From: Callorhinchus milii
Lineage: Eukaryota
Length of the DNA stretch: 64,000 bases
Reading direction: 5' to 3'
Assembly (NCBI RefSeq): GCF_018977255.1
Contig: NW_024704742.1
Span: 120,158,001-120,222,000 of the forward strand
The notes under the pieces: generated by a model
The model's input: only the letters and a program-made list of their open reading frames with translations
What the model was told of the DNA's origin: nothing
Databases searched by the model: none
Shown: in pieces, positions 31,501-63,400 of the stretch
How positions within the stretch are numbered: the first letter of the stretch is position 1
Layout of the letters: every line of letters begins with the position of its first letter
Made by a program: the position numbers and the translations under genes

Positions 31501-34500
31501 TTAATTCAATTACCCACCAACCAACTATTCACTCTATATTGTCCACTGTGCTTCTCTGTTGAAGGCTATTTAACTTGGATGGTATCATAGCCCTGTTAAA
31601 CCTTGGGGAATGAAACCTATTGTATCTGCTATCCTGGAATTTAAACCTGTAACTATATGGATCAAATGGCCTGCTGCTATACTTCGTTGAGTTTCCCTGT
31701 GTGGAGAGAAGGGACTAAGGTTAAAGATTACACATAAAGCATTCTAGGCATGTACAGGCCAGAAGGTTGTAGGTTTATCACCGTGTGTTGAATTAACTTA
31801 TTTCAGCCATGACAGAAGTCAGGACTGTAACGTGGTTATAATTTGGAGTCCCGTAATTCAGTGGTTAGAGCACTCGTCTCACAAGCGAGAGGACCTGGGT
31901 TTGATTCTGGTGCAAGGTGAAACCTTAGGCAAGTTTCCTGACTCCACAAGCCTCTGTTTACCTAGCAGTAAGTAGGAACCCGGTTGTTAGTCAATTGGCA
32001 GATCGTTTTTTCGCGAGTAATAATCCCTTAAAAAAATAAGAATAATTTGGTCATTCAATCCACTTTTCCACGTGTATAATAGAAAACTTTTTTCTTTTTT
32101 TTCTATTATACATCCAGAGTTGTTAGAATATTAAATACTTTACTACAAATGGCTGAGTACAAAACCGTGTTCAAAAGAGAAAATGGATAAATGTTGGAAG
32201 AAAACAATATTAAAGCGATAGAGCAAAGTAAAGGAATTAGAAGAGTAACAGTAAATATTAAATATTAGTAACAATTTAATATTAAATTGGATTAACAAGT
32301 TTTTGGAGCATTGCTGTGCGCAATTGGCTACCGTGTTTCACCCACAAAATCTAGTCAATTCACTTTACAGTATATTCTGTGAAACACTTTGAGATGTCTT
32401 GAAGACATCATAAGGCACTATATCTAACAGAAAGATTATTATCATTGCATGCATAGCCATTTGTGGGATCCTGTGCACAAACAAATTGGCTGCTAGTTGT
32501 TTAGAAATGCCTTCCCCCTAGACTTGACAGCATTTACCTGTACTGTGCTTCAAGAGGTTATCCTTGCATAAGTATGAAGTACTTATGCAAGGATTATTAT
32601 AAAACAGGCACAGGACAGATTTACTGCTTTTTAAAAAAAAAACAGTAGTCAATCCTCTGGTAATCTAGTTCTCTGCGGGCCTACAGTACTCCAAGGCACT
32701 TCTGACTATAGCCCCGGAAGAGCAGACCTGTCACTAGGGGCAGGGATTATTCCCTCTCAGCTTCTGGTAACCATACAAGCCAAAGTTCTAATGGATAGGA
32801 TGGTCCTAGCCGGACAAGCATCAGGAAAGCTTGCAAGACAGCGCTTTCAATGGCAAGTTATGTGGTTTTAACTGGTTAAACGCCAGCATTATTCCAACGC
32901 ACATTCTGGGGTCCCCAAGCCTCGACTCTTGACAACCTGCGCCCGATACTCTCCTGAATTAGGTAAGAGAATGCACTTTCCATTCCAATATAAAGGAATT
33001 TCCATGTATAGATGGGATGCATGGAATCCTCAGTCTGGTTTGGATACTCTTAAGCATGGTGATGGGTTTCCAAATTGTCAACCGCTTGACTAACCAAAAA
33101 CAAAAGTAGGCATACAAATCTATAAAGATTACTTTGAGTACAAAAATATTGGAAAGGCAGCAGGAGTGAAACTTCATTCAGAGGCTTTCGTTTATCTCGG
33201 AAAAACGCCACTGAAACCCTAATTCATGCCTTGATTATCACCTGATCTAACGCACTACTCACCAGCATTGTGTAAAGGGCACAATGGTTATAGACACAAT
33301 GGTTATAGTTCCCGGGAGGGTGAAACCTGGGGCAAGTTTCCATACTCCACACGCCTGATAATAATCCCTCAAGAAGATAAAAAACAATTATAAATTGGTC
33401 ACTTCAATCTACGACTGTTTGTGGGACACTGCTGTGCGCAATTGGCTGCCACGTTTAGCCCACAAATATACAGTCAATTCACTTTACAGTCTATTCTGTG
33501 AAGCGCTTTGAGACGTCGAGAAGATGTGAAAAGCACTATATTAAATGCAAGGATTATTATTAAGAGCAATTGGTTATAGTTTCCAAAAAATAATTTAATA
33601 GACAGCTTTGAAACGTTTTGTCAGTGTATTCACATATTTAATCACATTTTTCATACAATATACATTTCCATGTGAACATTTTCTTTAAAAAACTCTACAT
33701 TCATCCCTCGCATTTCCTGGTTGCCTTTTTTAAGAGGGGAAGAGAATTCCTGCAAAGTCAGAAATCCATCGCTTACCTAACAAACCAGTTCTTACTTTAG
33801 GATACCATGCGAGACAAGCAGAGCTGTCATCAATCCAAGATGACCAGTAACACAATAAACAGGATACATTTTATTCTTGCCCAGATTTTCCACATCAATA
33901 AAGGCACTAAAATTAAATATATTTTGCCTTAAAACAAAGTCACATAGAACAATCCCTGATCATGGAAGCAACTCTCAATGGTTCTAAAAGTTAAAGTACA
34001 AATCAAACCATGGCTACTGCTATAGTTGTAAAACCAAAAGAGCACATCTGAATTCATCTTAAGAACATTTGTAAATGTTCATTAATACCAATTAAAATAT
34101 AGCAAAATTGCTTGCAAGTTAATAATTTCCATTAAAAGTCATCAACTATAAACCTGTCACAATGAAGTTTTACTTCTGAACAAATAGAATATGACATTTT
34201 ACTTCCGAAGAAACAAGCTAAGTAACTACAACTTATAAATAACACCATGTCTGTGTACAAGTAAATTGATTTTACCAGTGAGATTTAAAGTTTGTTTAAT
34301 CTGATTACCAACATGTTCACAACATTGAAAGTCACAAAAGATCCATATCTGACCAAGGTCTCTATGTATTTTGGCATTACAGCCAGGTAGATTACCATAT
34401 TTAAGAAGGTTGGTCAGTACAGCCCAGTGCTCTTCCAATTTCCGATTGCTGCAGTTGGATTGATCAATGACCCACTTTGTCCTTTGAAAAGAATGTAGCT

Positions 34501-37500
34501 GTAACTTTGCTTGGATCATCTGGAGTGCTTTGCTCACCGTAAATGTGTTCGATTTTTCCGTTCTGCTGCACTTTGTAATACTCCAAGATCGCTGCGATTT
34601 GCTTTGCCAATCTGTAGCGCCATGCTGTAAGCCGGTCTCAGTAAAAAATTCCGCATCAGCTTCTTGTGTAACAGTACCAACCTTCTGTAAATTGGCAAAA
34701 AACTCTTGGAGATGCTCTGTACAATCATAGCTTTGCACTTGCTCTTTAGGTTCTAATGCAGCTAAATAATTTTCAATCCTTCTTGTTTCTTCATTTGAAA
34801 TTATTGGCGGATGGTTCTTAGGCTTCAATGGTAGATTCTGAAGGTCATTTGAAAACCATGGAGTGAATCTTGTTAAAGGTCTCTTTGGGAAATCCTCTAA
34901 TGCTCTCTGGGCTACTTTCAGCACTTCTGGACCACACTCTCGATTGGACCTATAATGTACCACTAACTCCATATGAGTGGCAACTCTGGGCGTCCAGAAG
35001 TGATTTCATCTTTTTTTAAAAAAAGCTTGAAGTAACAGTCTTCTTTCAAAAACGTCAATCTCTCTCTCTTCATTTTATCAATCTCAAATCTTTCATTCAG
35101 AATGAAATGGATTGTCACTGAGCATGCTCCCTTCTCAAATTTAGTATAGGTTAAATGAGAAAGGAGCTCACGCAAAAGTCCAGTATTGAAGACCTTCAGG
35201 AAGTGCTACCCTGCAGAGATAAAGGTCTTTAAATATCTCACAAGCAATCTTTTACAACGAACAAAAAGTAATACACCATTTTCTTCTTGGCAAGTCTGAA
35301 CTTCATATAAGAACATGCCCTCACCAATATCCATCTATTAAAACACTAAATGTCACGTGCAGGAGTTTCACAGTGCAAAAATTGCATGGAGTTCATTCAA
35401 GAAAATCAGTGCTTTGAAATGCTAACCATTTACATTCAATGTGATGCAAACGCATAGCTTTCAAAAGCGTATGAATAAAAAAAACCTTCATCAGCACCCA
35501 ATACAATACAAATTTACATTGTTTTGAACTGGCTCCAATCTGATATGTTTCCCCTTGGAATGTCGGAATCAAGTCAACTCTGTGGCAGTCTCAGTCCGAT
35601 TTCTGAGATTCTTTCCATTCAGTTCCAGTTAACCATATAATCCAAAGTCCTAACGGGTAGGATGGTCCTAGCTGGACAAGCAGAGTGAAGCTTGCTAGAC
35701 AGTGTTTTCAATGGCAAGCTGTGCAGTTTTAACTGGTTAAACTCCAGCAGCACCCCAACAGACACTCTGGGTTCTTGCCAATCTGTGCCTATTTTCTGGA
35801 AAGAAATGGATCAATGTTCACCACTCTGTGGCAACTACATAAAAATACCAAGAAATATGACAATCCCTACACAAGACAATTGAATTTTACTAAAAGTACA
35901 ACTAGTGAAGCTTGAATTGCAGATGATTTAGTAGCTTTTGCAGTGTACAGAAATAGGTAAACAGAAAGGGATAAACAAAGTTCTAAGACATATTGCAGTG
36001 TTAATAGTATCTTGCTCTACAGTCAAAAAAACAATTAAATCAAACTGTTTTAATAATAATAATAATAATAATCCTTGCATTTGATATAGCGCTTTTCACG
36101 TCGGGAGGACGTCCCAAAGCGCTATATCAAATGCAAGGATTTGTGGGAGAACGCGGCAGCCAATTGCGCACAGCATTGTCCCACAAACAGTCATGGATTG
36201 AAAATGACCAATTTATTATTGTTTTTGGAGGATATTATTAGGCGTGTGGAGTAAGGAAACTTGCCCAAGGTTTCGCCCTGTGCCTGGAATTGAACTCAGG
36301 TCTCTCGCTTGCAAAGCGAGTGCTCTAACCATTGAGCTACAGGACTCCACGAGTTTTCCCCATCTCAGCACGTTTAATCCTCATAGCCATCTCCAGCAAT
36401 GAGCCCCTACCAAGCTAACAATGAACAAACATTGCAACCTCATTTAAAACATACGAGTTTCTTCCCAGCCATTATTTATCCCACCTTCTAAATAATCTTA
36501 AAGATCAGAGAAATAAACTCTTAACATTGTCATTAATCTAAAGTAAACACAGATTTAGGAATAACAAGAGGGAAGAGACACAAATAATTTTAATATAATT
36601 ACACAGAGTGTGGCGAATAGTAGATGGCCTGTGGTAGCAATGGTGGTGGGTGTATCAGCAATTTCAAGAGGGAATTGGATAACTATTTTGCAAAGACAAC
36701 TAATTAAGAGGTATGAGCTATTGTAATATTATTTTCAAAATATCCTAATCCTAATTTAACCAGACAGCTACACATTCATACTTTTCAATAAGGATCGCCA
36801 ACTGATAGCAATCAGGAATGGTATCCGCACTCAATTGTTGCGCTCTATCCCAGTGCCACTGAAATGAAAGGCCAGTCTTAAGCAGCGCACCTACTTTTTA
36901 AAATCTCATCAGCAGAGGCACTGTGATAATAATCAACAACTTGCATTGACAAAGAGCCCTTCACACCAGATGGCGTCTCAGAGCGCTTACATGAAACTTG
37001 TGCCACACCAACACTTTTCAATTACTCCTGTTTAAATGACAACTACCAAACACAGGATAGGTGAGGAGTTGATTCACTAAACATCACTGAACACCAGGTG
37101 TAGTGTATATACTGCCTCTCTTCCTCCACTCCCCCCCCCTCCATGAATCATTCTCCTCATCCATTCCCCCTTTCATTCAACAACACGCATTTACATAGCG
37201 CCCTTCACTCGGGGGGAGTGTCTCGGGAGTGCTTAAAAGTGGCAGAGCCTGACGCCAAGACCCGGGGGGGGGAGAGGGGTGACAGTAGGAATGGTCTTCG
37301 AAGAAGGTCTTACGGGGTGAACTGACAAACGGGGAAGGCAGAGGGAATCAAGTAGGGAGTGCCAGGGTTTGAGTGCGCAGCGACATTCATTCCCTCCCCC
37401 CCTCTCCCTCATCAATCATTGTCATTCCCCCCCTCCCCACCAGCCCCTGTGTGTTTCCCTCCGCTCTCCAGAGGCCCCGTGTCCCCTCCACGGTGTATGG

Positions 37501-37852
37501 ATTTAATCCCTGTCTCCCTCTAACGATGTTGTCTCGGAAGACCGGGCCGGGGGTGTCCGGGCCGGGGCTGTCCGGGCCTGGGGCTGTCGGGCCGGGGCTG
37601 CCGGGCCTGGGGCTGTCGGGCCGGGGCTGCCGGGCCTGGGGCTGTCGGGCCGGGGCTGGGCTGTCCGGGCCGGGCGGGGCTGTCGGGCCGGGCTGGGCTG
37701 TCCGGGCCGGGGCTGTCGGGCCGGGCCTGGGACTGCCGGGCCTGGGCCTGTCCGGGCCGGGCCTGGGCTGTCCGGGACGGGGCTGTCCGGGCGGGGCCGC
37801 TCTCACCTTTCAGGGCCAGCAGGTGCTCCAGTTTCGGTTGATTCACGTCCAT
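13451..37852 (-). CDS. TRAPPC13: Trafficking protein particle complex subunit 13, complete spliced CDS (13 exons, 1254 nt, 417 aa; 418 aa with the upstream NAGNAG acceptor)
   Basis: join(complement) 37807-37852, 30524-30592, 29305-29404, 27015-27099, 26377-26504, 25071-25143, 23803-23847, 21306-21323, 18149-18282, 16345-16543, 15366-15466, 14654-14801, 13451-13558. All introns are GT-AG with consistent phases. Translation [39 protein letters not shown]...[18 protein letters not shown] matches vertebrate TRAPPC13 as recalled. Confidence 0.97.
13741..14100 (+). mobile_element. SINE, longer variant, followed tail-to-tail by a degraded minus-strand copy (about 14105-14303)
   Basis: tRNA head tgtagctcagtggttagagcactcgccttgcaagcgaga plus core and tail. 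Confidence 0.85.
14654..14801 (-). CDS. TRAPPC13: TRAPPC13 exon 12 (alternative start at 14804 via CAGCAG tandem acceptor)
   Basis: [49 protein letters not shown]. Confidence 0.95.
14900..15170 (-). mobile_element. L2 3' end fragment
   Basis: Tail and 3' UTR similar to the 3373 element. Confidence 0.7.
15366..15466 (-). CDS. TRAPPC13: TRAPPC13 exon 11
   Basis: [37 protein letters not shown] flanks. Confidence 0.95.
15954..16306 (-). mobile_element. SINE, longer and more diverged variant
   Basis: Reverse-complement match including the tgtttacctagcagtaagtaggaaccc segment. Confidence 0.8.
16345..16543 (-). CDS. TRAPPC13: TRAPPC13 exon 10
   Basis: [25 protein letters not shown]...[18 protein letters not shown] flanks. 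Confidence 0.95.
16849..17069 (-). mobile_element. SINE, 5'-truncated
   Basis: Reverse-complement match. Confidence 0.85.
18149..18282 (-). CDS. TRAPPC13: TRAPPC13 exon 9
   Basis: [49 protein letters not shown] flanks. Confidence 0.95.
20790..21090 (-). mobile_element. SINE, same family, full length
   Basis: Reverse-complement match. Confidence 0.88.
21306..21323 (-). CDS. TRAPPC13: TRAPPC13 18-nt microexon (SDLSSV)
   Basis: Minus strand reads TTCTCTTATTAG|AGT GAC CTC AGT TCT GTG|GTAATT. Phase 0/0. Encodes the SDLSSV segment recalled between FYNAE and TDEVF in the long mammalian isoform. Confidence 0.9.
23300..23547 (-). mobile_element. SINE, 5'-truncated
   Basis: Reverse-complement match to family body and tail. 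Confidence 0.85.
23803..23847 (-). CDS. TRAPPC13: TRAPPC13 exon 7
   Basis: [20 protein letters not shown]| and |GTAAGT. Confidence 0.93.
25071..25143 (-). CDS. TRAPPC13: TRAPPC13 exon 6
   Basis: [28 protein letters not shown] flanks. Confidence 0.95.
26377..26504 (-). CDS. TRAPPC13: TRAPPC13 exon 5
   Basis: [46 protein letters not shown] flanks. Confidence 0.95.
27015..27099 (-). CDS. TRAPPC13: TRAPPC13 exon 4
   Basis: [32 protein letters not shown] flanks. Confidence 0.95.
27375..27688 (+). mobile_element. SINE, same family, full length
   Basis: Match to 63467-63781. Confidence 0.9.
27942..29160 (+). mobile_element. L2 fragment in TRAPPC13 intron 3
   Basis: [24 protein letters not shown], in-frame stops, (TTG)n tail. 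Confidence 0.9.
29305..29404 (-). CDS. TRAPPC13: TRAPPC13 exon 3
   Basis: [37 protein letters not shown] flanks. Confidence 0.95.
30524..30592 (-). CDS. TRAPPC13: TRAPPC13 exon 2
   Basis: [29 protein letters not shown]| acceptor, |GTAAGT donor. Confidence 0.95.
31845..32445 (+). mobile_element. SINE (longer variant) interrupted by an inverted copy of nearby intron sequence
   Basis: Head at 31845, break at about 32063, resumes at about 32299. Confidence 0.82.
33313..33562 (+). mobile_element. SINE, 5'-truncated, with probable target-site duplication (tggttatagtt)
   Basis: Match to family; tggttatagtt on both flanks. Confidence 0.85.
34226..34972 (-). CDS. SHLD3: Shieldin complex subunit 3 (RINN1), single coding exon nested in TRAPPC13 intron 1, 248 aa
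   Basis: Intact ORF. N-terminus VVHYR...[17 protein letters not shown]...[13 protein letters not shown] resembles the human REV7-binding region (VILHYR...AIQDFPTRPLSRFIPWFP...LPLRPKRSPPVIS, recalled). Same nested position as in mammals. Candidate acceptor CTTTATCTCTGCAG| with exon starting at 35210; candidate AATAAA at about 33870. Confidence 0.93.
   Translation of the reverse strand: MELVVHYRSNRECGPEVLKVAQRALEDFPKRPLTRFTPWFSNDLQNLPLKPKNHPPIISNEETRRIENYLAALEPKEQVQSYDCTEHLQEFFANLQKVGTVTQEADAEFFTETGLQHGATDWQSKSQRSWSITKCSRTEKSNTFTVSKALQMIQAKLQLHSFQRTKWVIDQSNCSNRKLEEHWAVLTNLLKYGNLPGCNAKIHRDLGQIWIFCDFQCCEHVGNQIKQTLNLTGKINLLVHRHGVIYKL
36052..36348 (-). mobile_element. SINE, same family, with fold-back rearranged tail
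   Basis: Reverse-complement match; an internal segment is replaced by an inverted copy of the tail. Confidence 0.88.
37543..37798. repeat. GC-rich degenerate tandem repeat (GGGCC/GGGGCTGTC units) at the start of TRAPPC13 intron 1
   Basis: Directly visible tandem units such as gggccggggctgtcc. Confidence 0.9.
37807..37852 (-). CDS. TRAPPC13: TRAPPC13 coding exon 1 (probably shared with the SHLD3 transcript)
   Basis: ATG at 37852, [15 protein letters not shown], donor G|GTGAGA. Confidence 0.95.
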
Positions 37853-37859
37853 CTTCAGA

Positions 37860-38012
37860 TCGCACCCGCATGCGCAGACGGCAGTACGGAGCCCGAGATG
37901 AGCCGGAAAGCCGCGGGAGAAGAGCGACTCGCGAGATTTCGAAACGAAACCGCAGAGCCCCGGATACAAACCCACGTGATCCCTGGGAGGCCCCGCCCAC
38001 CAATCCAATCAG
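37860..38012 (-). promoter_or_regulatory. TRAPPC13/SHLD3 CpG-island promoter
   Basis: Motif matches: NRF1-like TGCGCATGCGG (37866-37876), ETS CCGGAA (about 37903), BANP/CGCG element TCTCGCGAGT (37927-37936), E-box CACGTG (37973), GC box GGCCCCGCCC (37989), tandem CCAAT (38000, 38005). Confidence 0.75.
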
Positions 38013-38325: not shown

Positions 38326-39554
38326 TCAGATATGATTCTGACATTCATATCCCTGCTATGGGATGATCTGGAGAAAAAGTTCCCAGAAAATTAACTCAAT
38401 GAATTGTCTGCTTTCGGTTTTGCTTCACTTGCACCAGAACAAACCAGCTATGAATTTGGCACTGAGAATATTGAAAAGATGGTTGACAAATACAGACAAA
38501 TCCTGATCCTTGGTCAAGTAAGGTCTTCTGGGCAAAACGTCATGGATGAAATGGAACTCATTGTGAGCCAATACAATGACAACAAGTACTTAATTGCAGA
38601 GAAGATTGAAACAAAGTCATTGAAAACGTTTCAGGACATGGTGACATTCAGGCTACAAATTACAGAACAGTGCAATGTGGTTTCACAACTAGAGGATATA
38701 TGTGCAACGTTTCAAGCTTCAAGTGCTGATTGTGAGTGTGGGTTCAGCCTTATGAATAATATAAAAACAAAATCCCAAAACCAATTGAAAGAAAATCACC
38801 TTGATATGCTCATGCGGATCAAATCTCATCTGTCAAGTGGTAGAGAAGTAAATCTGGACAAAATATGTCCTGTAGCTCAGTGGTTAGAGCACTCGCCTTG
38901 CAAGCGAGACCTGGGTTTGATTCCTGGCAGCGCGAAACCTTGGGCAAGTTTCCTTACTCCACACACCTGATAATAATCCCTCAAGAAAAAAAAACAATAA
39001 TAAATTGGTCATTTCAATCCACAACTGTTTGAGGGACACTGCTGTGAGCAATTGGCTGCCGCATTTCTCCCACAAATATATAGTTTATTCACTTTACAGT
39101 ATATTCTGTGAAGCACTTTGAGATGTCTGGAAGACGTGAAAAGTGCTACATCAAATGCAGGATTATTATTATTATAAACACTGGAAGAGAGGGAGAGACA
39201 GAAGAGAAAAACATCCGAACCAGAGACAAGTGACCCTTTTCTTCTCCGTCATCTGGCCTGTCATCCTCAGACTCTGGGTCTCACTCAGGATGTCCCTATT
39301 CCTCTGGTGGAGGTGTTTACTTCTGAAATTTCTACAACCAGTTTTGTTTCATTAAAAATCCTTGACCGCTCGCCTTGTTAACACTCATCCATTATTTTGT
39401 ATATTGGTTCTGTTTGTCAGATACCCTAAGATGTTCTATTCAAAGTTTTGAGCCCTTTTTTTTTCTTACGCCGGCGCACACAGCCTTCACATCGGCGCAC
39501 AAACCCAAATTCATTCCGCGCCCGGCCGGAAAAAAACTGAAAGAGGGAACGTAG
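38326..39554 (+). mobile_element. hAT-superfamily DNA transposon relic (transposase C-terminal dimerisation region and probable 3' end), interrupted by a SINE
   Basis: ICATFQASSADCECGFSLMNNIKTKSQNQLKENHLDMLMRIK fits the hAT dimerisation pattern (SS..CERGFS.M..IK...R..L....L..LM.I). In-frame TAA at about 38392. Possible terminus AGAGGGAACGTAG at about 39542-39554. Confidence 0.78.
38867..39175 (+). mobile_element. SINE, same family, inserted in the hAT transposase relic
   Basis: Match to 63467-63781. Confidence 0.9.
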
Positions 39555-40184: not shown

Positions 40185-52654
<12,470 letters not shown>

Positions 52655-60400: not shown

Positions 60401-63400
60401 CTCTAACCACTGAGCTACAGGACTCCACTCTCCCACTGAGGCACTGAGGAAATCCATTCAGTGCAAAGTTAGTACAGCAAACTCTTGATAACCCCGACCC
60501 TGGCTTAATTAGTTACTACCACTTAAGTCGCCATGCTGACGATATCCTGCTTGCATCCCATTCAAAATATTGTCACTCCGCTTAACACGCAATAAAGTCA
60601 CATTTCAGAAAATCTCGTAATTACACTCAATGTAAAATCAATGAGATAATTTGCCATGACAAGAAGCAAACTCTCGTAACAATTGCAGAAAAGGTCACTG
60701 CTCAGCCAGCTACGTGGTGTTAATTGTGATGCAAGTTGTGTGTATACAAATACATTATAGTACATCTCTTGAGAAGAGCAGTTTCTAACACAGTAACAGA
60801 TATAAGCAGTAGGAAACAGAATATAAGTGCATTTATACACAAACAAGTCTATTATATATAATATACATTACTTAAATGAGTTTTATTAAACTGTTCTGTC
60901 ACTCTGGCAGGTGCTGTATACACAGGTTGTTGTATACAGTAGGTGCTCTCAGCGCCCCCTTGTGGTCCGGAAAGACCTATGCCTCACTCACCTCTGAATA
61001 ACTCGTCACTGAGCCCTTTACTCTTGGAGTGACGAGATATCAGGAGTTGACTGTATCTGCTGGATTCTTAACCAGGATTATGTGAACTACACTTCACTAT
61101 TCTAGTCATCCTTCTTTAGAATATTTCCATAAATAAGATCTATTGTAAAAGAAATACAAAATTATGTGCAAGATTACGTGATGCATACCAAATGGGTTTA
61201 CAACTATAAAAAGTGCATTATCCCATCACAGAAATAAACAGAAGCTCACTTTTTAAGGGTTTTCTACAGTAAACTGATTAATTTGATGGGATTACAGCTG
61301 TGAACCTCCGATATCTCAAAGCCAGTGCACATGATCTGCCATTGCATTTATTATTGTTTCCAGCAATGAACATACCTGTTAGTTTCAACATTTATTACTT
61401 TGATTCCCAACATTGTAGCATAAAGTATGAAATGTCCAGTTTCATCAAAAATAATATTGGCCAGTCTTATTCCATCCACTTTTTCCAGTTCTCTTTCAAC
61501 AGCCATACGCCGGCCAAACTCCATGTCTGGAAGCTGTTGCCTCATTTGTTGCAATTCTGTAAACATCTTAAAACAAAAGTTTAACTTTTAAGTAGTGAAT
61601 ACCCTTGACAGAATTCTACTATAGGACATTTGCAAATAGAAATTCTTTGCAAGTCAAATACTGATTGAGGAACTAGTGAAATGTATAGATCTGTAGAACT
61701 TTAACAAAAACATTACATTTGAATAGTGCCTTTCACGTCGAGAGGACGTCCCAAGGCGATGGACAGACAGAGTTATGGACGCGAGCTGGGTATTGGTCTT
61801 GTTGACGTTCAACTGAAGAAAGTTAGCTCTCATCCAGGACTTGATGTCTGACAGACATTCTGTCAACATAGCAGTGATCCTGGAGTCAAGGAGGCAAGAC
61901 TTAGTTTCAAATATGTTACTGAAGCCCTCCAAAATAGTGAAAAATTATCAAAAATATTAAGCAAATTTTGGGACTGATCCAGTTATACCAGATAACGATG
62001 AGTCACTTTGGGTTTAGGAAGCCAGTTATGGGTCCATAGGGACCCATAACTGGCTTCCTGTTATAACAAAGCTCTACTTTAGTTTGCACTGAATCAATGT
62101 CAGTCACACTGAAATAACACACGCTCATCATGGTAACAAGCACCAAACTGTTCGAGGAGATAGTCGCTCGTTGCTTTCCATTGGCATTGTCTATAGTATA
62201 ACCACATCTGGTGCAAAGGCAATTTTATTTTTTAAAAAATCAAATTACATGTTTAATAGGTTCCTGGGTAATCCCTTAAATTGAGTCAGCTTTTCAATAA
62301 TATTTAAGTCGCTTGAACAGATGCCTGCAAATTTAAGCAAACTGTTACACTGAAAATGAATTCTGAATGTGAGCATATACCTGTTCTGAGAATGCACAAT
62401 ATTAACAGTAATTTACATTTATAAATTTGCTTTTACATGAGAGAAATGCCTCAAAGAGCTTTACAGAATGTAATTAATTAGGAATAAAGTAAATGTTATG
62501 GAGGCAGACACAGCAGCTAATTTAACAGCATCATCAACAATAAAACGAGAAGGCATTTGAGGGTTGAATTGATGTGTCAAAAAGAGAATATAAGACAAGT
62601 TAACAGAGGCAAACGCCACCATTTTTTGCAATAGTGACAGGAATCCTTTCATATCCATCTGATTTACAAGACGTCCATTGGAAAAATGGAAATGGTTCTA
62701 TACCACTTCACTGATACTTTCTCACCTTGATCAGAATAAAGCAAACTATTTTTCTCTTAAAAAATCTACTTACTGTAAGGGATTCATCGAAGATCCTCAT
62801 GAGCTTTCCCGTCAAAAACCTGAAAATTCTGACTTTGCGATCAGATCCAATGGTGGCCATTTTCTTTCCATCAGGAGAGAATGCAACGCTTATTGGGTAC
62901 GATTTACACTTCGCAAATTCATACAGGTCTGTATCCGTCTTGTATACCCATGCCACATTTCTGGGAAATTTGTAATCATTGGGTGGCCCAGTCCAATATT
63001 CCAGCATTCCTGATTTATCAGTGGATACGACAACCTTGTACACGGGATTTAACTTGATCTGACTGAGGGGGGAGCTATGCAGTTTCTCAATCACATGGAG
63101 CGGTTTGTTATTTCCTCGAGCGTCATACACAAAGATCTTTCCACTGTTCTTTTCAGAACATGCTACAGCAAATATAGCATCTCCTGGTGAGTAAATCCAT
63201 CCACACTTCCCAGGGTGGAAGCTGTAAAACAAAATTGTGAACCCTTAATTTTAAATTCATTATACAACAATGTGAGCAATGCGAGTTTCTCATCTAGATG
63301 CTAGTTACAATGGGAACTCACTAAAATCAATTAACTTCACAGTATATTCTGTGAAGCACTTTTACACGTCTCAACGACGCAATAAGGCACTATATCAAAT

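Follow-up and report, generated by a model that had tools for sequence, protein, structure and literature searches.

A TRAPPC13-derived upstream open reading frame on SHLD3 mRNA probably lowers SHLD3 output in Callorhinchus milii

[quoted passage not shown] The same text gives 16 codons as the mean mammalian uORF length and reports that reinitiation drops as the uORF grows: with reporters in HeLa cells and in vitro, reinitiation past a 9-codon uORF comes at a 5- to 10-fold cost, and a 24-codon uORF costs more. In calicivirus and influenza B TURBS, the stop codon overlaps or adjoins the restart AUG; UGGGA is the motif-1 core, and this motif is missing in some cellular and viral cases of termination-reinitiation (accessible text of PMC5972666). 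Programmed readthrough of type I has the motif CARYYA after the stop, and structures that stimulate readthrough typically start ~8 nt after it (accessible text of PMC3542737). In the ATF4/GCN4 layout, a short first uORF is followed by a later one that runs out of frame over the main AUG. The first uORF of ATF4 has 3 codons. Our literature search returned no description of uORF control for the SHLD3 leader, where the primary shieldin papers may already note a uORF, and the accessible part of PMC11747621 states nothing about the SHLD3 transcript.

We analysed 64,000 nucleotides of Callorhinchus milii (contig NW_024704742.1, positions 120,158,001 to 120,222,000), referred to here as the window. 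Human SHLD3 (RINN1, CTC-534A2.2) presumably derives from the TRAPPC13 locus; in mammals and birds SHLD3 lies in TRAPPC13 intron 1 as a separate exon that has the first exon of its host in common. SHLD3 of bamboo shark, pig and dog is entered in databases as TRAPPC13 isoforms. The window has the same arrangement, with the following parts:

34226..34972, minus strand: SHLD3 coding sequence, 248 aa in one exon, with 57–64% identity to shark and ray SHLD3
37807..37852, minus strand: coding part of TRAPPC13 exon 1, common to the SHLD3 mRNA, 46 nt with a phase-1 GT donor
33620..34225, minus strand: likely 3' UTR of SHLD3, for which the X1 and X2 contig ends at 33620 are a weak hint only

A UniRef cluster mate of the 248-aa ORF is labelled Callorhinchus milii. 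The SHLD3 ATG at 34972 has C at −3 and G at +4, and the TRAPPC13 AUG at 37852 stands in strong context (A at −3, G at +4). An ATTAAA at 33642 precedes the contig ends at 33620 by about 20 nt (X1 and X2, from one study).

Read evidence was taken from the assembled contigs of eight of the 14 matching sequencing runs, from which isoform ratios are not obtainable. No run is on record as RNA; we treated X1, X2, X3, X5, X6 and X9 as RNA-like, which is a guess, and among these X1, X5 and X6 display exon junctions. X11 and X13 behave as DNA: they cover the intron at 35807–35900, and their repeats reach depths of tens of thousands. X9 is without cover in the leader and X5 without cover at 35018–35069, and neither was counted as evidence there. 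The contigs place two 3' splice sites upstream of SHLD3:

35211..35212, minus strand: proximal 3' splice site (exon start 35210), with an exon-1 loose end at 35212 in X5 and X6
35796..35797, minus strand: distal 3' splice site (exon start 35795), with an exon-1 loose end at 35797 in X1

The original prediction had joined TRAPPC13 exon 1 to an exon starting at 35210. Exon-1 letters attached at 35212 in the RNA-like contigs of X5 and X6 (study P2) confirm the junction 37807->35210. Exon-1 letters are attached at 35797 in X1, and the X3 contig stops at that position with 28 unmatched letters; a second acceptor at 35795 is therefore in use. The P1 contigs X1, X2 and X3 cross 35210 unbroken. The predicted acceptor is thus a real one, although not the sole one, and use of another acceptor was among the outcomes that the original prediction had listed against itself. 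Compared with mammal and bird SHLD3, the gene here has two acceptors, with leaders of 239 and 824 nt in the reads (238 and 823 nt in the window).

Joining exon 1 to 35210 turns the TRAPPC13 AUG into the start of a 16-codon uORF on the SHLD3 mRNA, as had been predicted; junction contigs and translated joins both bear this out. The window letters also agree with every coordinate on which that prediction was built (37852–37807, 35210, 35208–35206, 35205–34966, 34965–34963, 35073 and 34972). Downstream of the junction the leader contains:

35206..35208, minus strand: TAG closing the 16-codon TRAPPC13-derived uORF, with CAC TTC next
35122..35173, minus strand: predicted hairpin, −22.2 kcal/mol, z −5.6, single copy in the genome
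35093..35125, minus strand: uORF of 10 codons (A at −3), whose AUG is absent from the 35124 allele found in four runs
35070..35096, minus strand: uORF of 8 codons in weak context (T at −3)
35006..35073, minus strand: uORF from the ATG at 35073 (A at −3), 22 codons in the read alleles and 36 in the window
34950..35009, minus strand: uORF of 19 codons (A at −3), which in every allele runs out of frame across the SHLD3 AUG

The SHLD3 mRNA therefore carries five uAUGs, at 37852 and, in the exon leader, at 35125, 35096, 35073 and 35009; the four in the exon leader compare with 4.7 expected. Those at 35125, 35096 and 35009 had not been listed in the original prediction. On the distal-acceptor leader the TRAPPC13 uORF is extended to 34 codons and 17 uATGs are present. 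AUG-initiated short ORFs thus lie on the same spliced mRNA as the main ORF, as in ordinary repressive uORF leaders, and the 16 codons equal the mean given above; the difference is that the SHLD3 uORF begins where another protein has its conserved start codon. Because this is the TRAPPC13 start codon, selection on TRAPPC13 keeps the uORF strong. All alleles also have the ATF4-type combination of a short first uORF and an out-of-frame uORF over the main AUG. The resemblance is one of layout only: the first SHLD3 uORF has 16 codons, three uORFs lie between, and the overlapping uAUG at 35009 is just 37 nt from the SHLD3 AUG.

Our favoured explanation, which we consider probable, is that the shared exon 1 puts the 16-codon uORF on the SHLD3 mRNA and that SHLD3 is made at a low level by reinitiation and leaky scanning. 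Most scanning subunits would initiate at the TRAPPC13 AUG, given its A at −3 and G at +4, and a fraction of ribosomes may take up scanning again after 16 codons. The predicted hairpin and the uAUGs at 35125, 35096, 35073 and 35009 would then take out most of the resumed subunits, with the 19-codon uORF from 35009 the likely block to SHLD3 itself, through its overlap. Only survivors would reach the SHLD3 AUG (C at −3, G at +4), for a low output, and the long-leader isoform with its 17 uATGs would give still less. The general idea of the original prediction, that SHLD3 translation is kept low by its leader, is in this sense supported by the uORFs from which we infer it. Low SHLD3 output would fit the reported extremely low abundance of SHLD1 and SHLD3, which puts SHLD3 with the scarcest DNA-repair proteins (bioRxiv 2020.07.19.210773, accessible text). 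Damping would then be a by-product of the common first exon, with leader detail not conserved. A low requirement for shieldin may explain why such damping is tolerated, or even favoured.

The original prediction had placed more weight on an open frame that directly follows the TAG and overlaps the SHLD3 ATG. Two features decide how this frame is read:

35011..35024, no strand assigned: T7A7 run, read as T8A7 or T7A8 (one extra base) in 6/6 spanning runs and likely under-called in the assembly
34963..35205, minus strand: open frame after the TAG, 80 codons plus stop in the window, 66 codons in the read alleles

In the window letters the frame of 80 codons is correct and does overlap the SHLD3 ATG, but in all six spanning runs it has 66 codons and no overlap. 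X1 and X6 have T8A7 (extra base behind 35017), and X2, X3, X11 and X13 have T7A8 (extra base behind 35010); the X5 contig ends inside the run and X9 has no cover there. The longer run was found across three studies. Since X11 and X13 behave as DNA, the extra base is genomic, and transcriptional slippage is ruled out as its source. In X13 the longer form makes up 12.4 of a depth of 21.4, the remainder being unlisted short pieces, and contigs lose rare variants. T7A7 in the window is likely a one-base assembly error, an under-called homopolymer being the simplest reading; it might instead be a true allele that is rare. The frame of the read alleles, which is also that of SHLD3, closes at the TGA at 35008–35006, 33 nt upstream of the SHLD3 AUG, so that the TRAPPC13 and SHLD3 AUGs share one frame with two stops between them. 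The animals with the extra base therefore have no 97-aa product, no 36-aa product and no stop/start overlap. The predicted 36-aa ORF from the ATG at 35073 is cut to 22 codons. Neither frame is thus intact across individuals (80 codons become 66, and 36 become 22), as a conserved microprotein would have to be. Frameshifting at the T/A run would exit the SHLD3 frame and not enter it, which removes it as a route into SHLD3. Double readthrough to an exon-1/SHLD3 fusion was also rejected: it would have to pass two stops, the second being UGA-A, and negligible yield would be expected.

An open frame of this length was flagged from the start as unexpected but possibly due to chance. Among 20,000 dinucleotide shuffles, 0.2% reached 80 open codons in the fixed frame and 0.6% did so in any frame; among 10,000 shuffles, at least 65 codons were reached by 0.6% when the frame was fixed and by 3.8% when any frame counted. 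With the frame fixed, 99.4% of shuffles thus fall short of the 66-codon frame. Among stretches of the window matched for GC, 2.0% reached 80 codons and 3.3% reached 65 (starts overlap, and exons and repeats are included), and 120 of the 6715 stop-to-stop intervals in the window measure at least 80 codons. The frame is mildly long, yet within reach of a 64-kb scan.

Database searches did not reveal a relative of the encoded peptide. The 80-aa sequence had no homologue among 5.8 billion proteins (word index, candidates of 44–140 aa), no match at E ≤ 0.001 among 1.84 billion representative proteins and no Pfam family, with the proviso that unannotated small ORFs may be absent from such protein libraries. 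Homologues in other species, expected of a conserved microprotein, were therefore lacking in the protein libraries and Pfam. The peptide maps to a single locus in its own genome, and nothing of a repeat or transposon remnant is detectable in it, an origin that we discarded. Two of the four SNPs in the frame are synonymous and two are radical missense changes (Cys->Arg, Glu->Lys), a small number that is also biased by contig assembly. RNA editing was dismissed as the source of the SNPs at 35100, 35113 and 35124, which are also present in the DNA-like runs X11 and X13.

Comparison with the recoding systems gave partial likenesses. As in programmed readthrough, the UAG is followed by CA and a stem is predicted 8 nt downstream, but UAG-CAC-UUC departs from UAG-CAR-YYA at two of six positions, this first stem is weak (8 bp, three of the eight pairs being G-U), and no conserved extension follows. 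The likeness to TURBS exists in the window only, where no more than 10 nt separate a stop from the downstream AUG; the overlap is missing in the read alleles, in which stop and AUG are 33 nt apart, and the 260 nt that follow the acceptor contain no TGGGA. The AUGA overlap that the read alleles do possess (35009–35006) opens the 19-codon inhibitory uORF and not SHLD3. The leader as a whole folds more stably than 200/200 shuffles (z −4.0), which speaks for the readthrough idea. Background values are 3/58 GC-matched 261-nt windows at z ≤ −3.5 and 7/168 80-nt intron-1 windows at z ≤ −3. The 3' arm of the predicted hairpin contains the uAUG at 35125; one SNP stabilizes the hairpin and removes this uAUG, and another SNP destabilizes it. 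The hairpin matched no Rfam family. The sole Rfam match obtained is tRNA-like and lies at 36281–36341.

Evidence from other species comes from automated protein models with N-terminal extensions, and only open frames appear in protein databases. SHLD3-core proteins that start with TRAPPC13 exon 1 in frame number three of 312, from two tenrecs and one falcon (P0182, P0205 (273 aa) and P0207 (298 aa)). The tenrec models have a 7-residue linker, equal to a leader of about 20 nt, and the falcon model a 34-residue linker, equal to about 101 nt. Unlike these open in-frame fusion models, the gene here has a stop two bases into the exon that closes the TRAPPC13 frame. It also differs from the razorbill model, in which exon 1 (7 of 15 residues matching exon 1 of the window) is read in the −1 frame into SHLD3 through a leader of ~136 nt, so that in razorbill the TRAPPC13 and SHLD3 AUGs do not share a frame. 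Over ~55 nt the falcon leader shows homology to the razorbill and shearwater leaders, with a one-base offset when counted from the AUG (none of 200 shuffles as good in either alignment, using back-translation profiles), and the razorbill and shearwater leaders share one frame. These bird leaders thus carry frame-breaking indels, part of an outcome that the original prediction had itself named as counting against it.

Among cartilaginous fishes, the sawfish and skate extensions resemble each other over no more than the 20 nt directly preceding the AUG (1/200 shuffles as good), where the window encodes the matching Pro-Arg-Val. In the skate model a Met-Lys pair lies 41 codons upstream of the SHLD3 start, which forces a TGA in the 80-codon frame if the extension is contiguous. 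The window leader gave no protein or nucleotide signal against the sawfish, skate, falcon, razorbill and shearwater extensions (10–77 of 100 shuffles as good), and 56 pattern matches to orthologous leader DNA in metagenome contigs yielded no confirmed case. Read with the caution that automated models call for, these comparisons suggest that sharing of the first exon is old and that leader length, acceptor and frame vary freely; such variable leaders argue against conserved uORF spacing of the ATF4 type.

Other readings of the same data were weighed against damping. In one, the leader is a selected and regulated switch, with SHLD3 adjusted by tissue or stress through the choice of acceptor (leader of 239 or 824 nt) and through delayed reinitiation of the ATF4 kind beyond the 19-codon uORF. 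Acceptor use does differ by study, X5 and X6 of P2 splicing at 35210 while X1–X3 of P1 run through it and X1 joins 35795; the short first uORF and the overlapping last uORF are present in all alleles, the hairpin has a z of −5.6, and the common exon 1 is seen again in the tenrec, falcon and razorbill models. A selected switch is nonetheless hard to reconcile with leader lengths (about 20, 101, 136 and 239 nt) and frames that vary among species, with an overlapping uAUG only 37 nt away from the SHLD3 AUG, with the loss of uAUG 35125 in a common allele and with a hairpin strengthened by one SNP and weakened by another. A z of −3 or below is also reached by 7 of the 168 intron-1 windows, and contigs give no isoform quantities. 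We regard the switch as unlikely. Less probable again is that most SHLD3 comes from a minor transcript, made through an in-frame fusion acceptor at 34983, an out-of-frame acceptor at 34985 or a separate start site. Joining exon 1 at 34983 does produce an open frame of 267 codons, reminiscent of the fusion models P0182, P0205 and P0207 in tenrecs and falcon, and the sawfish/skate similarity is confined to the last 20 nt before the AUG. Against this, 34983 is a GAG acceptor, the X1, X2, X3, X5 and X6 contigs pass 34985–34983 unbroken with none of the loose ends listed falling there, and just 3/312 SHLD3-core proteins begin with exon 1.

The two readings favoured by the original prediction fare worse still. 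A functional, lineage-specific microprotein could be made by UAG readthrough (83 aa in the read alleles) or from the 22-aa ORF, and the frame does directly continue that of TRAPPC13, with C after the UAG, four of six CARYYA positions, a predicted structure 8 nt past the stop and a fixed-frame P of 0.006. We consider this very improbable given the missing homologue, the two radical missense changes among four SNPs, the incomplete CARYYA and the lack of similarity to leader translations of five other species; in the form first proposed (97-aa readthrough product or 36-aa ORF) it hinges on the T7A7 of the window, which is absent from the six spanning contigs. Stop/start coupling depends on the same letters. 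If the window is correct for its individual, termination at 34965–34963 ends 10 nt past the A of the SHLD3 AUG and could couple to restart there, and UGGGA is dispensable in some cellular and viral cases (accessible text of PMC5972666). The T7A7 form, however, occurs in 0/6 spanning long contigs, so that the coupling would be missing in animals whose run is longer, and the leader is without UGGGA; we give this reading the smallest chance of all. Damping by the TRAPPC13-derived uORF, with the 80-codon overlap a likely one-base assembly error and the frame of a length that chance can supply, probably remains the best account of the locus.

Had they stood, the claims of a microprotein and of stop/start coupling would have been important; they depend on a likely assembly error, and the lesson is to check read data before trusting ORFs that cross base runs. 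A transcriptional explanation has been published for SHLD1; a uORF borrowed from the start codon of the host gene is a simple candidate cause of SHLD3 scarcity, and one that is testable in human cells. A broader and doubtful extension is that the TRAPPC13 start codon gates SHLD3 across jawed vertebrates, with the choice of intron-1 3' splice site setting the gate. If true, it would take in both the short and long uORF-laden leaders seen here and the in-frame TRAPPC13–SHLD3 fusion of tenrecs and falcons, and splicing and reinitiation factors would tune the level of shieldin, and with it break-repair pathway choice and the response to PARP inhibitors.

The leader of SHLD3, downstream of the uORF stop codon, holds a predicted hairpin and a possible non-AUG start in strong context, and the longer of its two isoforms carries a repeat:

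35122-35173, minus strand: predicted hairpin of -22 kcal/mol, single-copy, beginning 33 nt past the uORF stop
35151-35183, minus strand: CUG in strong context (A at -3, G at +4) opening a 10-codon frame, 10 nt upstream of the hairpin
35640-35760: high-copy repeat fragment in the long-leader isoform, recognised by its very high contig depth

Two of the four leader SNPs fall within the predicted hairpin. The UniRef model P0045 begins with residues of the CUG-opened frame, a start that is probably a gene-model artefact.

Automated models from rays place an upstream methionine in frame with SHLD3, giving predicted N-terminal extensions of 51, 61 and 7 aa in sawfish (P0003), skate (P0046) and electric ray (P0006), respectively, which are mutually dissimilar except for their last residues. 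In tenrec and falcon, RefSeq models (P0182, P0205 and P0207) join TRAPPC13 exon 1 in frame to SHLD3, with predicted fusion proteins of 273 and 298 aa. Models from zebra shark, turkey and deer mouse (P0060, P0102, P0103, P0254 and P0255) splice from late in the SHLD3 coding region to TRAPPC13 exon 2, and the SHLD3-TRAPPC13 chimeras so predicted are 341-635 aa long.

Several further features lie in TRAPPC13 intron 1 and around exon 1:

32520-32680, minus strand: the strongest predicted fold of intron 1, with z down to -7.8 (80-nt windows)
36281-36341, minus strand: tRNA-like Rfam match
37542-37797, immediately 3' of the exon-1 donor: GC-rich tandem array of about 17 units of 15/29 nt
37869-37871, minus strand: weak ATG (C at -3, C at +4), 19 nt upstream of the TRAPPC13 AUG
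38395-38970, plus strand, upstream of exon 1: open frame of 191 codons

The intronic fold is possibly a repeat remnant, and the tRNA-like match is likely a SINE head. The weak ATG, if it lies within the transcript, would open a 35-codon frame once spliced to 35210. The 191-codon frame may be a remnant of a hAT-transposase C terminus, which it appears to resemble.

Beyond these, exon-like frames were found in two further intervals:

44140-46527, plus strand
62711-63244, minus strand

These appear similar to TRIM23 and PPWD1, which neighbour TRAPPC13 in human.
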